From positions 1 to 47,490 of the forward strand of contig JANNXY010000041.1 in assembly GCA_031409775.1 (NCBI GenBank): 47,490 bases of DNA, written 5' to 3'. The notes beneath the pieces were generated by a model. It was not told the DNA's origin. It searched no databases and saw nothing but the letters and a program-made list of their open reading frames with translations. Origin of the DNA: a bacterium. GTDB lineage: Bacteria > Patescibacteriota > Minisyncoccia > Phycocordibacterales > CAIZIN01. Shown piece after piece: positions 1,510 to 7,279 of the stretch; the first letter of the stretch is position 1; every line of letters begins with the position of its first letter. The translations under genes were made by a program, and so were the position numbers.

Positions 1510-2499
1510 GAGTGTCCTTAGATGAACATGCTACTATGCTGCTTCTGAACACCTCTTCCCGTAGTGTGCAACAACCACGCTACGGGACCCTTTCAAAGTA
1601 TTTAATTATTATTGAATCTTTTGAAAGGGTGGGCGGTCTAATGAATATATGTTTCTATGGTGGGTCTGACCACTCATCCCCAATTTCGCCTCGGCGAGTG
1701 CCGGTGTTCTAATAGCCGCCTGTTTCTATCCGCGCATTGAACACCAGCATCTTTTTCAGTTCTTTATACAATTTGGTGACGTAGGCTTGGTTAGAAATGT
1801 TTCTATTTGGTTCCTGCTTACGTTACCAACTACTTTGGCGATGTGGTCTATGACGTGCCTGTTTCTACCTGGCCCCTGACCACACCGTCAGAAATTTGAG
1901 ATGGGCTAACAGCAGCATGATTCTAAGCGGATTCTGCCCATCTCACCGCGACGACTCACCTCGTCGCGGCCTCTTTAGAGTATTTTTCGTCAAGAATTTT
2001 CTGAAGAGGATGTGTGCTTATGGACCAATGTTTCTAGATATTGTATGCACACATTCCTCTTTGCTCTTTGTACAATTTGGTAACGTAGACTTCTCGCCGT
2101 CTGATTCTATTCGATGACTGTTTACGTTACCGACTACTTTGGCGGTGTGGTCTTTCGGGGGCTTGATGCTTAAGTAAAAATGACTACACCGCCAGAAATT
2201 TGAGATGTTTTAACAACATCGTGTTTCTGAAGTCTGCGTGAACACCTCTCCTCCAGCATTTTGAGTAATCGACGTGCTGGAGGCCCTTTCAAAGGATTCA
2301 ATACGGATTGAGTATTTTGAAAGGGTGGGTGGTCTAGAGAAAGCTTGTTCCTAGAGGGCGATTGACCACCCATCCGACCCTTTGCTGGTGTTCTATGTAG
2401 ATCGTGTTTGTAAACATGAAGTGGACACCAGCATCCCTTTCAGTTCTTTGTGATTTGGTAGGCTTGTGCCGTAGTGTTTCTGTATATGGGCTGCTTATC
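1510..2499 (+). ncRNA. TIGR-like stem-loop guide RNA array, 13 units, each with two 9-nt spacers
   Basis: Each unit: 5' stem, CTA/CTT (TTA once), 9-nt spacer A, 8-nt loop repeat (TGTTTCTA consensus), 9-nt spacer B, TG, reverse complement of the 5' stem. Spacer A starts at 1520, 1641, 1712, 1789, 1851, 1909, 2020, 2093, 2155, 2213, 2337, 2396 and 2466. The 3-9-8-9-2 spacing holds in all 13 units. Confidence 0.9.
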
Positions 2500-2536: not shown

Positions 2537-2597
2537 GTATTTATGTCTTTTCTTAAAATTTGCCAAAAAATCCATAATAGGTTAGTATTTGGGAACT

Positions 2598-2807
2598 ATG
2601 GTAAACCACATGAGACATACGCGGGCACATACCGCGAATCGCAGAAGCCACCATGCCCTGTCCAAGCCAGGCTTGGCTATTGACGATGCAGGCAATGCTA
2701 CACTAAGGCATCATATGAACCCTGTTACCGGCATGTACCGCGGCAAGCAGATCATCGATGTGAACAAGAAGACCGCAGTCAAGGCAAAGGCAGAAAAGGT
2801 TAAGTAA
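2598..2807 (+). CDS. rpmF: 50S ribosomal protein L32
   Basis: MVNHMRHTRAHTANRRSHHAL...LRHHMNPVTGMYRGKQII; L32 pattern without Zn-ribbon cysteines; upstream of nusB-rnc; ATG at 2598 preferred over TTG at 2589. Confidence 0.9.
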   Translation: MVNHMRHTRAHTANRRSHHALSKPGLAIDDAGNATLRHHMNPVTGMYRGKQIIDVNKKTAVKAKAEKVK

Positions 2808-2877
2808 CCTTGCTGCTTGTTGGTAATTAGATTGTTGCCGTATTTGTTTTGTGATACACTCTTAGCAAGCTATAACT

Positions 2878-3816
2878 ATGGCAAACAGGCACCTTTCCAG
2901 ATCAGTGGTTCTCCAAACACTCTTTGAGTGGGATTTTATGAGTCTCACGAGAGATAGAGCGCTGTCTGCCCTCACTCGCAATATCGTCGAATTCGCACCT
3001 GATATGGGCGATGAGTCGTTTATGACACATTTGTTCGACGGTGTCGTTTCCAAACATTCTGACTTGGACAACATAATATCCAAAGCTGCACCAGAATGGC
3101 CTCTGGCCAAGATATCGAACGTGGACCGCAACGTGCTCAGGCTTGGACTCTATGAGCTGCTGTTTGCAGAGCGCAAAGAAGTCCCACCCAAGGTTGCGAT
3201 AAATGAAGCGATAGAGCTTGCGAAGACATTTGGCGGAGAGAATTCTGGCAAATTCGTCAACGGTGTACTCGGTGCTGTGTACAAAGAAATAGGTGAACCC
3301 GGCAAAGAAGAGGTCTCTAAACGTAAAAAGATCGAGGACATTCCATTTGAAAAGATGCCGATACAGAAGCTCGTAGGTGGAGTCATATACGCCGAACACG
3401 AAGATCAGATCTACCTCGCACTAGTACATGATGTGTTTGGACATTGGACTCTTTCCAAAGGTAAGGTCAGACCAGAGGAAGATGTCTATGATGCGTTAGT
3501 GCGCAAAGCCAAGGAGGAGACAGGTTTAGAAGTTACAAGGGAAGACGAGCTTGGTAACAACGAATATGTTGCCTCTGACCCAACACTCGGCAAGATCCGC
3601 AAGCAGGTCCACTACTTCCTCGCCAAAGCTGAATACAAAGAACTGCATTTGGAAAAGAAAGGCGGACTCGACGATGCCAAATGGTTCCTAATGTCCGAGA
3701 TAGTTGACCTAAATCTATACAATGATATTGTGCCTATATTTACCAAAGCCGTAAACATATTACTAACGAAAGACCATGAAAGAAATCAAAGAATTCGAAG
3801 CAACACTGCAGAATAA
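2878..3816 (+). CDS. nusB: Transcription antitermination factor NusB fused to a C-terminal NUDIX-fold domain
   Basis: RHLSRSVVLQTLFEWDF, DRNVLRLGLYEL, AINEAIELAKTFG...KFVNGVLG; C-terminal WTLSKGKV...EE...LVRKAKEETGL Nudix-box-like motif. Confidence 0.93.
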   Translation: MANRHLSRSVVLQTLFEWDFMSLTRDRALSALTRNIVEFAPDMGDESFMTHLFDGVVSKHSDLDNIISKAAPEWPLAKISNVDRNVLRLGLYELLFAERKEVPPKVAINEAIELAKTFGGENSGKFVNGVLGAVYKEIGEPGKEEVSKRKKIEDIPFEKMPIQKLVGGVIYAEHEDQIYLALVHDVFGHWTLSKGKVRPEEDVYDALVRKAKEETGLEVTREDELGNNEYVASDPTLGKIRKQVHYFLAKAEYKELHLEKKGGLDDAKWFLMSEIVDLNLYNDIVPIFTKAVNILLTKDHERNQRIRSNTAE

Positions 3817-4468
3817 ATTTACAGACAAGAATCTACTAGAACAGGCCTTTATCCATAGGTCATATTTGAATGAGAACAGAAATGTAAGCAGGGAGCATAA
3901 CGAGCGCCTAGAATTCCTGGGTGATGCAGTGCTCGAGCTAGTAGTCACTCGCTACCTATACGACAGATATCCCGAAAAGCCCGAGGGAGATCTCACCGCA
4001 CTCCGCTCGGCTCTCGTAAACGCTGTAACACTTTCCCAAGTAGCAAGCGAATTACGTGTTAACGACTATATACTGCTTTCCAAAGGCGAGGCCAAGGACA
4101 TGGGTAGGGCTCGCAACTATATACTCGCAGATGCGCTCGAAGCGATCATCGGGGCGATTTACCTGGACCAGGGCTACGACAATGCAGAGAAATTTATACA
4201 CAAGAATATAACTGTGCGTATCGATGAAATAGTAAAGAAAAAGTTGTGGATCGATTCTAAAAGTAAATTCCAGGAAATAGCTCAGGAGCGCGTCGGTATC
4301 ACACCAGCGTATCGCACAGTGCGGGAATCAGGTCCAGACCATGACAAGATTTTCACAGTTGGACTCTACCTCGCGGACAACCTCGTATCCGAAGGGTCTG
4401 GTAAAAGCAAGCAAGAAGCCGAACAAGAAGCCGCGAGGGTTGCGCTGCATGATAGCAAATGGAAGTAG
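3776..4468 (+). CDS. rnc: Ribonuclease III
   Basis: NERLEFLGDAVL signature, ADALEAIIGAIYLDQG, C-terminal dsRBD (SGPDHDKIF, GSGKSKQEAEQEAA). Confidence 0.98.
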   Translation: MKEIKEFEATLQNKFTDKNLLEQAFIHRSYLNENRNVSREHNERLEFLGDAVLELVVTRYLYDRYPEKPEGDLTALRSALVNAVTLSQVASELRVNDYILLSKGEAKDMGRARNYILADALEAIIGAIYLDQGYDNAEKFIHKNITVRIDEIVKKKLWIDSKSKFQEIAQERVGITPAYRTVRESGPDHDKIFTVGLYLADNLVSEGSGKSKQEAEQEAARVALHDSKWK

Positions 4469-5035: not shown

Positions 5036-7279
5036 ATGTATCTCAAATCCCTCGAAATCAACGGCTTCAAGTCATTTGGCAAGAAAGTGGCCTTGGAATT
5101 TACTTCACCCATTACATCTGTGGTGGGGCCGAATGGTTCCGGCAAGAGTAATGTTGCAGAGTCATTTAGGTTTGTACTCGGAGAGCAGTCGATGAGGTCC
5201 ATGCGTGGCAAACGTGGAGAGGATCTGATATTTAATGGGTCGGATGCAGGTCAGCAGAGTCTGTCTAGACTGAACCGTGCATCGGTCAAGCTTGTTTTCG
5301 ACAATAGTAAAAAAATCCTACCAATCGATTTCGACGAAGTATCGCTCGAGCGCGTTGTGCATCGAGATGGCGTCAATGAATATTTCCTCAACGGATCCCA
5401 GGTTAGACTCAAAGACATTCAGGAATTGCTCTCCCATGCCCATATCGGGTCATCGGGACATCACATCATCTCCCAAGGTGAAGCAGACCGGATACTGAGT
5501 GCCAATACCAAAGAGCGCAAGAGTATGCTTGAAGACGCTCTGGGGTTGAATGTATTCCAGAACAAGAAGCTAGAGAGTCAGAGGAAGCTAGAGAAGACTA
5601 CAGAGAACATAAAGCAGGTAGAATCCCTACGAAGGGAGCTCGCACCACATTTGAAATTCCTCGGCAAACAGATGGAAAAGGTGGAGAAAGCCGAGACACT
5701 CCGAGCCGACCTCCGCCAGATCTACAAAGAATATTTGAAAAGGGAAGAATTGTATTTAATGAATTCCAAATCCTCTATCGAAGCTGAATTGTCTAACCCC
5801 GAATCAGAATTAGCAGAGCTTGCGGGCAGGATAGAAATGATCCGCAAATCGCTAACTGTATCCGAAGGTGAGAATGCCCCCAAACTCGAGCTTATAGAAG
5901 CAGAGCGCAAGTTCCGTGAGAAGCAAAATGAAAAGCAAAAGCTGTCGCACTCTATAGGACGTCTAGAAGGTGAGTTGTCATCATTACATAGGATGATCGA
6001 ACGCAGTCAGAGGCAGGTAGAGGAAGAGAGTCACCACATAGTTCCGCTAGTAGAGATAGAGAAAATAGTAAGAGAAATAAACCAAGATTTCGAAAAAGCC
6101 GAGAAGGAAAACTCTATAGAATTGTTTAAGTCTGCATTTGGCAAGATGCGTGATGTATTCAACAACTTCATAAGTAATCACAAAGTAAAACCAGTCGTAA
6201 GCAGTGGAGAGAATTATCAAGAAGAAATGGATAAGCTGCAAAAAGAGAAAGAAAGAACACTTCTAGATCTAGAGCGGGTAGGTAGCGAGGAGCAGGAATT
6301 GCAATCGAAGATAAGGTCGCTCAATCATGAAATAGAGGTAAAAAGTAAAGACAACCTCGATGCTGAGCGAGAAATGTTCCAGATCATGTCTAGACAGAAC
6401 GAGCTACAGAGCCAGACCAACCTGCTCCGATCCAAAAAAAACCAGCTCGCTCTCGAACACGACGAATGGAAAAGGGAAGTGAACGAGGCGTATGTGCTCA
6501 TCGGTCGGGAGATTATGGAATACGAATCATTGCAGATCGAATACTCTAACGAGGATCGTAGCATCCAGCACGATAGACGTAGACAGATAGAGAAGGTCAA
6601 GATCCGCATAGAAGAGCTAGGTATCGGTGGTATAGAAGAGCTGACCAAAGAATATAGAGAAGCGCAGGAGCGTGATGGATTCCTAGCGCGCGAAGTGGTA
6701 GATCTGGTCGCTTCGGGTGATGATCTCCAGATACTCATAAAGGACCTCGAAGAAAAGATAAATACAGAGTTCAAGTCAGGTATAGAAAAGATAAATACAG
6801 AATTCCAGAAATACTTCGAGCTCCTGTTTGGTGGAGGCAAGGCATCTCTCAAGGTTGTAAGGGAAGAAGCCTCCGACGCTGAAGCTATGGAGGCCGAGGG
6901 AGGCTTGCCCGCCGAAGCTTCAGCGAAGGCGGGGATTGATATCTCAGTAGATCTGCCAAAGAAGAAAGTGAAAGCACTTATGATGCTCTCTGGCGGCGAA
7001 AGGGCACTGACGTCTATCGCACTGCTGTTTGCCATGTCGCAGGTCAATCCTCCGCCGTTTATAATCCTCGACGAGACTGATGCCGCGCTCGACGAGGCCA
7101 ATTCCAAGAAATATGGCGACATGATCGAAGCTCTAGCCAAGTACTCCCAGCTCATCGTGATCACCCACAACCGCGAAACTATGTCTCGCGCGGGCATTAT
7201 CTACGGAGTTACTATGATGTCTGGGCTTTCCAAGCTCCTCTCTATCAAATTCGACGAAGCTGTTGCTGTAGCTAAGTAA
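5036..7279 (+). CDS. smc: SMC-family chromosome segregation ATPase (short form)
   Basis: MYLKSLEINGFKSF, Walker A GPNGSGKSN, Q-loop IISQG, signature LSGGE, Walker B FIILDETDAALD, VITH; long coiled coil; only 747 aa. Confidence 0.95.
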   Translation: MYLKSLEINGFKSFGKKVALEFTSPITSVVGPNGSGKSNVAESFRFVLGEQSMRSMRGKRGEDLIFNGSDAGQQSLSRLNRASVKLVFDNSKKILPIDFDEVSLERVVHRDGVNEYFLNGSQVRLKDIQELLSHAHIGSSGHHIISQGEADRILSANTKERKSMLEDALGLNVFQNKKLESQRKLEKTTENIKQVESLRRELAPHLKFLGKQMEKVEKAETLRADLRQIYKEYLKREELYLMNSKSSIEAELSNPESELAELAGRIEMIRKSLTVSEGENAPKLELIEAERKFREKQNEKQKLSHSIGRLEGELSSLHRMIERSQRQVEEESHHIVPLVEIEKIVREINQDFEKAEKENSIELFKSAFGKMRDVFNNFISNHKVKPVVSSGENYQEEMDKLQKEKERTLLDLERVGSEEQELQSKIRSLNHEIEVKSKDNLDAEREMFQIMSRQNELQSQTNLLRSKKNQLALEHDEWKREVNEAYVLIGREIMEYESLQIEYSNEDRSIQHDRRRQIEKVKIRIEELGIGGIEELTKEYREAQERDGFLAREVVDLVASGDDLQILIKDLEEKINTEFKSGIEKINTEFQKYFELLFGGGKASLKVVREEASDAEAMEAEGGLPAEASAKAGIDISVDLPKKKVKALMMLSGGERALTSIALLFAMSQVNPPPFIILDETDAALDEANSKKYGDMIEALAKYSQLIVITHNRETMSRAGIIYGVTMMSGLSKLLSIKFDEAVAVAK
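6869..6933. repeat. Pair of GC-rich palindromic units in frame within smc
   Basis: GCCTCC-gacgctgaagctat-GGAGGC and CCCGCC-gaagcttcagcgaa-GGCGGG, translating as ASDAEAMEA...LPAEASAKAG just upstream of the GIDI...LSGGE region. Confidence 0.65.

Follow-up and report, generated by a model that had tools for sequence, protein, structure and literature searches.

Block-wise copying of hairpin scaffolds and faster change of the short guides in a stem-loop TIGR array from a Patescibacteria genome

Stem-loop TIGR (tandem interspaced guide RNA) arrays are built of tandem stem-loops that carry two 8-12-nt spacers, box C/D motifs as well as variable palindromes (Faure 2025, PMC12045711). In the TasR clade of the candidate phyla radiation (CPR), the RuvC domain is expanded and catalytically dead, the proteins act as RNA-guided repressors, the arrays lie on both sides of tas and the boxes read CUU and UG (Xu 2026, bioRxiv 10.64898/2026.09.09.750476). 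These descriptions follow the text of the two papers, both of which state that the route of spacer gain is unknown. Here we analyze positions 1510-2501 of the window, by which we mean the whole 47,490-nt contig JANNXY010000041.1 (assembly GCA_031409775.1) of a Patescibacteria (CPR) genome. This stretch lies between the stop of a 466-codon open reading frame (ORF; 95-1495) and a terminator-like hairpin at 2503 and is, judged by its layout, a stem-loop TIGR array of the published class. The TIGR system itself is already known and the locus alone is no discovery; the finding concerns the evolution of the array, in which hairpin scaffolds have been copied in blocks and the short guides inside them have changed far faster. 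We read the array as the downstream half of a stem-loop TIGR locus with arrays flanking tasR on both sides, and put the probability of the explanation set out below, taken as a whole, at about three in four.

With the CPR TasR clade (CsTasR, PateTasR), as described in the text of Xu 2026, the locus shares an expanded RuvC-like domain, two 9-10-nt spacers, a CUU-like box C and a UG box D, stems that vary within the array, arrays on both sides of tas, a CPR host and CUU linkers. It differs in having recurring stem classes, multi-unit cassettes and two spacerless hairpins, H1 and H2, all undescribed in that text, in its 8-nt loop without an internal hairpin (mostly 9 nt in Xu 2026), and in a tasR split by an insertion sequence (IS). 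The TIGR-TasA locus from the gut of Peromyscus leucopus, according to the text of Faure 2025, likewise has 13 dual-spacer stem-loop units with box C/D motifs and variable palindromic stems in three subarrays, and each of its units is processed to one hairpin RNA; unlike here, the effector TasA is without RuvC, the subarrays lie ~450 nt apart rather than forming contiguous blocks, and cassette homology is unreported in the text. Recurring stem classes, multi-unit cassettes and H1/H2 were not found described in the TIGR literature searched, which took in the running text of Faure 2025 and Xu 2026; the supplements and figures of both may show cassette-like alignments. Duplication goes unmentioned in the text of Xu 2026 and Guan 2026, its single mention in the text of Faure 2025 concerns the repeats of CRISPR, and literature retrieved for tigRNA and duplication held nothing on array evolution, judged by title and abstract.

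All 13 units of the array follow one design: a stem of 7-14 bp, CTT/CTA/TTA, 9 nt, an 8-nt loop, 9 nt, TG and the other stem arm. The central loop (consensus TGTTTCTA; starts at 1529, 1650, 1721, 1798, 1860, 1918, 2029, 2102, 2164, 2222, 2346, 2405 and 2475) holds a box D and a box C within 8 nt, the 5' box C is CTW and the 3' box D is TG, and spacers A and B are 9 nt each. The resulting box pattern, CTT/CTA/TTA - 9 nt - TG...CTA/CTT/CTG/GTA - 9 nt - TG, is present in 13/13 units of the window and in 7/7 units of a second array upstream of tasR; all 20 units of the genome keep the boxes and the spacer length (9+9 nt), with no spacer indels. Variable palindromic stems, with a between-family identity of 44.4%, replace edge repeats. 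Folding with ViennaRNA gave a hairpin closing on the boxes for 12/13 units; U10 alone, which has one A-C mismatch, folds otherwise in isolation. The RNA fold of block 1 has z = -6.3 vs shuffles. CTT, corresponding to the CUU that the text of Xu 2026 gives as a processing mark, occurs in most, not all, linkers of the array.

The units, all on the forward strand, form three blocks, with H1 and H2 following the first unit of each (U1, U6, U10). Block 1 comprises U1 (1510-1555, stem family a), H1 (1557-1587, 12-bp arms, G+C-rich, no spacers), H2 (1587-1630, A+T-rich, its 3' arm extending into the 5' stem of U2), U2 (1627-1680, family b), U3 (1699-1749, family c), U4 (1773-1829, family d, with the linker motif GTTCTTT..TTTGG ahead of it at 1757-1776) and U5 (1834-1892, family e). 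Block 2 runs from U6 (1897-1945, family a') through H1 (1946-1969, of other sequence at the equivalent position) and H2 (1970-2009, its 3' arm doubling as the outer part of the U7 stem) to U7 (2003-2061, family b'), U8 (2077-2133, family d) and U9 (2138-2196, family e). Block 3 consists of U10 (2201-2249, family a), H1 (2250-2283), H2 (2284-2326), U11 (2323-2375, family b), U12 (2383-2433, family c) and the last unit, U13 (2455-2501, family d, with a shortened, partly lost outer stem). The array ends in an intrinsic-terminator-like structure (2503-2541), a hairpin of 13 pairs, 10 of them G-C (2503-2532), followed by a T-run.

Two long repeats record the copying. A repeat search matched 1761-1924 to 2065-2228 (offset 304, 77-89% identical) and 1588-1765 to 2284-2449 (offset 684/696, 75-78% identical). 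Inside them, identity reaches 107/126 in stems, 35/43 in central loops and 10/10 in box D, and only 17/54 and 16/48 in spacers. Out of 24 stem bases, 21 agree between U2 and U11 and between U5 and U9, 20 between U3 and U12 and between U4 and U8, and 17 between U1 and U10 and between U6 and U10; the background is 7-14. Across all 20 units of both arrays, stem identity is 80.6% in 17 within-family pairs vs 44.4% in the 173 other pairs, whereas spacer identity is 29.4% (90/306) within families vs 26.5% in other pairs (p = 0.16, 20,000 family-label shuffles). Within a stem family, spacers resemble each other only as much as random ones do. In the a-to-c segment, which exists in three copies, identity amounts to 74-83% for non-spacer columns and 26-37% for spacer columns. 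The closest paralogs in this genome keep spacer identities of 6/9 and 5/9.

A first-pass annotation of the window had described 13 units in three blocks with recurring stems and unlike spacers, and the 13/13 layout, the repeats and the stem identities bear this out, together with its families U2~U11, U3~U12 and U5~U9; in its family U4~U8~U13, U13 matches the other two at 13-14/24. Two of its groupings need adjustment. Its triplet U1~U6~U10 holds for U1-U10 and U6-U10; the direct link U1~U6 lies at background (12/24), and U6 pairs with V6 of the upstream array. U7, placed by the same annotation in the slot of U2, has a stem type of its own, agreeing with U2 at 10/24 and with V7 of the upstream array at 22/24. 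The accompanying claim that differences between paralogous stems keep pairing is about half right: it is correct for 14 one-sided and 3 both-sided changes in the within-family stem pairs, beside 127 unchanged positions, and fails for 27 positions that are unpaired in one copy, part of which are register shifts in families a/a'.

Three candidate signals among the units were considered. The junction of the two long repeats falls in the central loop of U10, which might be a recombination hybrid of U6 (5') and U1 (3'), but its stem matches V2 of the upstream array at 22/24, so it may be a standard a-type unit. An 8-mer common to U5 spacer A and V3 spacer B (~0.1 expected) and a 7-mer reverse-complement match between U1 spacer B and U6 spacer A (~0.9 expected) were taken as chance.

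The upstream array was located by a pattern scan of the whole 808-kb assembly and has seven units at about 2301-2920 of contig C20 (G000:C20, L003). After V1 it runs a-H1-H2-b-c-(hairpin)-e and then a'-H1-H2-b' (V2-H1-H2-V3-V4-V5-V6-H1-H2-V7); from V2 on, it and blocks 1 and 2 of the window are colinear save for the d slot, where a plain hairpin stands, and its spacers differ. This copy is mosaic, with H1 as in block 3 and the small hairpin after unit b as in block 1. The depth of its contig equals that of the window contig (18.3 vs 15.9; 33 vs 30.8). Growth by duplication of a multi-guide cassette, as the first-pass annotation had proposed, is well supported by these sequence comparisons: stem types and H1/H2 follow one order three times in the window and once more upstream of tasR, and relatives have repeated cassettes too. 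Copying of the cassette by non-allelic recombination would be the simplest reading of colinear repeats within and across tas.

We surveyed 75 related loci, read on the + strand, after setting aside 13 of 88 (L003, which belongs to the same genome, and twelve that were either duplicates or the window); the loci are mutually related, so that the counts are not independent. At least 4 detectable units with 9+9-nt spacers occur in 39/75 loci, and 32 of these 39 contain at least one unit pair with ≥16/20 identical stem bases. The 276 same-stem pairs in the 39 loci have a mean spacer identity of 30.2%, vs 25.9% for 2127 other pairs, and fall into two groups: 265 are identical at ≤10/18 spacer bases and 11, presumably young copies, at 13-18/18, with none at 11-12. 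Cassettes also recur in individual loci. In L026 a five-unit cassette of ~400 nt is present five times, twice upstream of tasR and three times downstream, and every copy closes with a hairpin and T-run; a three-unit cassette, with hairpins resembling H1 and H2, is repeated in L081 and L083, where the H2 3' arm is common with the next stem; and L048 shows the a-H1-H2-b arrangement and the GTTCTTT linker motif. One paralog pair in L083 has spacer identities of 6/9 and 8/9 (by eye). Close orthologs of the locus were absent from single-protein scans of genome and metagenome contigs, and profile scans returned loci at about 29-40% best-segment protein identity, plus one 25-residue fragment at 68%. 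TasR is present in 1/40 related genomes, at 35% identity; TasR proteins at 62-66% identity to the window TasR exist.

Two orthologous pairs among the relatives show how the spacers change. L052 and L087 share synteny, with a nucleotide identity of ~78-80%, and in their aligned arrays the stems, loops and inter-unit hairpins have hardly changed; identity is 142/162 (88%) in stems and boxes, 149/292 (51%) at four-fold sites of two genes and 24/107 (22%) in spacers (Fisher p = 1.6e-7). In L081/L083 the corresponding values are 159/180 (88%) for scaffolds, 112/199 (56%) for four-fold sites of tasR and 29/108 (27%) for spacers (p = 5e-7). The alignments of both pairs support the view that spacers diverge faster than silent sites. 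They likewise support, in these relatives though not for the present locus itself, spacer change inside fixed scaffolds at a fixed position, which is as far as the rewriting in place suggested by the first-pass annotation can be followed. A dedicated rewriting mechanism would be no more than a candidate; the partial spacer identities of the paralogs in this genome and in L083 fit stepwise substitution. The pattern it had named as contrary, whole-unit gain at one end alone with fixed stem-spacer linkage, is the opposite of what L052/L087 and L081/L083 show. DNA contigs from three runs of one study, two of these runs being the likely source, showed no spacer variants, though contigs drop rare variants; the low-depth pieces of the third run had 0 other letters.

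Some further observations concern these relatives. Spacer A at L081 5817 and L083 5820 has 7 bases in common in a register shifted by two, both spacers being 9 nt (by eye); two compensating indels or re-derivation from one target would be needed. In L087 (3884-5700, an Uhrbacteria metagenome-assembled genome) tasR is apparently frameshifted, with ORFs of 403 aa and 202/260 aa vs 633 aa in L052. Differences between L040 (3900-4000 and 4600-4900) and L075 cluster in the N-terminal and middle parts of tasR, which suggests mosaic recombination or selection on the protein.

The gene between the two arrays can be assigned to TasR from profile and modeled-structure matches. A profile of the window protein and 8 homologs matches TaTasR (9MTY) over the Nop region (E 1.4e-21), and in a Foldseek search with an AlphaFold2 (AF2) model of a full-length homolog, P0004 (pLDDT 88.2), 9mty_A ranks first (E 6.6e-12), ahead of TasH and the IS621 bridge recombinase; Pfam alone gives the window protein a weak, sub-threshold match to Transposase_20 (IS110 C-terminal; E 0.018). 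At the RuvC N-terminal strand, 8 homologs have I-A-I-[I/K/R/H/Q/L]-H-R, a stretch free of acids, and the piece on C20 is alike in this.

In the assembly, tasR is split after codon 31 by the IS. Positions 1-139 of the window are the right end of this ~1.1-kb element, which has a DDE_Tnp_1 transposase and is no part of the array; 140-148 is its 9-bp target-site duplication in tasR, with the identical 9 bases directly before the IS left end (G000:C20 3104-3112); and 149-1495 (within ORF 95-1495) is the 3' part of tasR, from about codon 32 to the stop, all on the forward strand. The first 31 codons lie on G000:C20 3018-3110 and match the P0004 N-terminus (20/23 identical, E 2e-11). Because of the 9-base duplication and the N-terminus match, we take the true order to be upstream array, tasR 5' piece, IS, tasR 3' piece, downstream array. 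Contig C20 is a chimeric path through the IS repeat (G000:C20, L003, 3018-4211), whose right flank pairs with the left junction on C12. Identical IS right ends stand at the starts of contigs C31, C40, C41 and C59 and inside C20, the transposase matches Pfam DDE_Tnp_1_5 (E 9.9e-29), and the IS contig depth of 151.8, vs 15.9 for the window contig, suggests about 9 copies; another left/right junction pair (C37/C59) likewise has 9 bases in common. The TIGR system may have been switched off recently.

The dual-repeat TIGR systems (TaTasR, SpTasH) resemble the present locus in having two short spacers per guide and box C/D anchors, and by analogy a Nop-domain effector dimer, with each spacer pairing with a different DNA strand, would be common to both; what sets them apart is that their edge and loop repeats are fixed, their guides are 36 nt long, the protein has a Y/H processing loop and the nucleases are active, whereas here the edge repeats are replaced by stems that differ between units. 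CRISPR also sets tandem guide units with variable spacers beside an effector gene, but here there are two 9-nt spacers per unit, no identical repeats, no conserved repeat beyond the 8-nt loop, and no cas genes, Cas1/Cas2 included, among the Pfam-scanned neighboring ORFs; nor is there a sign of polarised addition. At fixed positions, units of the same scaffold carry spacers unrelated to one another. Dual-guide loops bound by a Nop-like domain, as here, also occur in IS110/IS621 bridge RNA and archaeal box C/D small RNAs (sRNAs), and the IS621 recombinase is among the structural matches; the bridge RNA, however, is a single RNA per element and guides recombination, and the archaeal sRNAs have kink-turn (K-turn) boxes, need L7Ae and fibrillarin and have RNA targets. 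The array has neither the RUGAUGA/CUGA K-turn boxes nor a match to an Rfam C/D family, its boxes being 3 and 2 nt, and an Rfam scan of 1400-2700 at E ≤ 1 returned no family for the array RNA, only a chance microRNA match on the terminator.

The explanation we favor combines the published biochemistry of the class with the sequence patterns above. The array would be transcribed with or behind tasR, ending at the terminator, and the transcript would be cut between stems into single-hairpin guides. A TasR dimer would then hold the guide, spacers A and B pairing with opposite strands of an 18-bp DNA site, and the complex, with the RuvC-like domain of the CPR clade lacking catalytic acids, would bind and block without cutting. 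Non-allelic (unequal) recombination would have duplicated a multi-guide cassette (a-H1-H2-b-c-d-e, then a'-H1-H2-b'-d-e), both inside the array and to the two sides of tasR. After copying, selection would have kept stems, boxes, loop, linkers and H1/H2 while the two 9-nt spacers diverged to randomness, as diversifying selection for new targets fixed ordinary substitutions and short patches; no enzyme dedicated to adaptation would be involved. Mutation plus diversifying selection is a possible source of the spacer change. Among the 6 downstream and 5 upstream ORFs scanned there is no integrase, reverse transcriptase or Cas1-like gene; IS transposases are the only genes of that sort.

Several points weigh against this explanation. 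With tasR interrupted in the assembly, the array could be a relic. A sigma-70 promoter scan was not above shuffles (3 found, 1.9 expected). Composite 18-mers, in either arrangement, had 0 self-targets with ≤1 mismatch in the 808-kb assembly, and their 2 matches at 2 mismatches and 39 at 3 are at control level (25-33 at 3 mismatches in five mis-paired controls). The comparison with the CsTasR positions at which, in the description of Xu 2026, R8 and V126 replace the canonical acids is one of motif and description, not of residue superposition. The evidence for spacers outpacing synonymous sites is from two TasR lineages other than this one, 30-40% identical to the window TasR; orthology by position is secure only where unique flanks anchor the units and can otherwise be mistaken in repeated cassettes, and four-fold sites are an imperfect neutral yardstick. 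In L040 and L075, which are 96.7% identical overall, one spacer has 5/9 bases changed and the rest of the array is identical, which resembles a burst or patch more than it does steady substitution.

The last point would fit an active rewriting in place, in which a spacer-directed process replaces or hypermutates the 9-nt spacers in an unchanged hairpin, with no unit gain at one end; we regard this as a tentative alternative of limited likelihood. Templated short-patch repair from target DNA and mutation of the single-stranded loop of an extruded hairpin would be candidate routes. Such a process is consistent with spacers outpacing four-fold sites in the two orthologous pairs, with the bimodal same-stem pairs (265 at ≤10/18, 11 at ≥13/18, none at 11-12), with the shifted L081/L083 spacers and with the statement, in the text of both Faure 2025 and Xu 2026, that spacer gain in TIGR is unknown. 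However, the scanned ORFs near the locus offer no candidate enzyme, and the text of Xu 2026 reports the RuvC-like domain of the clade to be inactive. The conserved 8-nt loop between the spacers means that two separate 9-nt patches must be struck, the partial identities (5-8 of 9) of young paralogs are in line with ordinary substitution, and stem identity, being under selection, is no clock, so that the bimodality has other explanations. On these sequences pure drift appears excluded, while selection on ordinary mutations and a directed process are not separated by the data. We are equally doubtful of the wider proposal that the arrays are modular, with an H1/H2-bounded multi-guide cassette as the expansion unit, copied within the array and across tas, and new guides arising inside existing scaffolds by a spacer-directed process above the synonymous rate. 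If it were true, there would be a route to new guides without integrase or unit addition, unlike CRISPR adaptation.

Concerted evolution strikes us as unlikely to account for the pattern. Cassettes and spacers would both be old, and the scaffolds would look young through short-tract gene conversion that homogenises stems and linkers while the spacers bordering the tracts stay unlike. Arrays of near-identical short repeats are good substrates for gene conversion, the copies are mosaic, as in the H1 and the small hairpin of the upstream array, and L081/L083 units of one stem class carry genome-specific 3'-flank variants (by eye). Yet the homologous stretches between spacers, only about 8 to 40 nt, are short for recombination, and the lower identity of anchored orthologous spacers than of four-fold sites is left unexplained. 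Gene conversion of this kind may act alongside spacer turnover, adding to the contrast between scaffold and spacer.

Neutral decay, in which the spacers are unconstrained and drifting, all else is constrained and no selection for new guides operates, is improbable. The random identity of paralogous spacers, the lack of targets found in the own genome and the broken tasR are what it would lead one to expect; drift predicts orthologous spacers near four-fold sites (51-56%), however, where 22-27% is seen, and the 9+9-nt length and flanking boxes are kept in all 20 units with no spacer indels. We consider it very improbable that the units guide RNA modification or RNA binding in the manner of box C/D sRNAs rather than DNA binding: the dual-guide layout, the Nop-domain protein, the speculation in the text of Faure 2025 that places the CPR TasR clade on the way to box C/D systems and weak Foldseek matches to Nop56/58 and archaeal C/D ribonucleoproteins (E 0.02-0.2) are outweighed by the lack of a match to an Rfam small nucleolar RNA or sRNA family, by tested CPR TasR proteins that bind DNA and repress transcription (text of Xu 2026), and by the absence of a fibrillarin or L7Ae partner seen near the locus, where no search was aimed at either.

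The origin of TIGR spacers and the growth of the arrays are open questions in the text of Faure 2025 and Xu 2026, and the locus and its relatives give a concrete, testable picture, in which arrays grow by whole-cassette copying of hairpin scaffolds, after which the 9-nt guides are altered where they stand, at a pace above that of silent sites. This pattern speaks against a CRISPR-like polarised record of encounters and directs attention to strain series, selection on spacers and recombination between units. The H1/H2 cassette may mark transcription or processing units, which could be of use to array finders and guide designers.

The sequence of the G+C-rich H1 differs from block to block. The A+T-rich H2 overlaps, with its 3' arm, the stem of the unit that follows, and its pairing is kept across 5 copies through 3 both-sided changes. 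For the H2 3' arm there are two possible pairing partners: the H2 5' arm or, when it serves as an outer stem extension of the next unit, sequence behind that unit (window 1587-1637, 1970-2016 and 2284-2333). This alternative is kept in all five copies of the genome and in L081/L083 (L081 about 5660-5710), and the predicted pairings might constitute a candidate switch of processing or transcription. The linker motif, GTTCTTT, a few bases and TTTGG, occurs at window 1757-1776, 2061-2080 and 2441-2458 and also in L048, L026 and L052; it is kept in loci whose TasR is only 30-40% identical and precedes certain units (d-type here). The motif contains the CUU linked to processing in the text of Xu 2026.

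The neighboring genes encode L32, NusB-Nudix, RNase III, SMC, RNase R and IS transposases. Directly downstream (window 2589-4468), Pfam identifies ribosomal protein L32, a NusB-Nudix fusion and RNase III. The RNase III gene lies 1.2 kb from the long-hairpin array, which may be coincidence, or the enzyme may be the one that processes the array.

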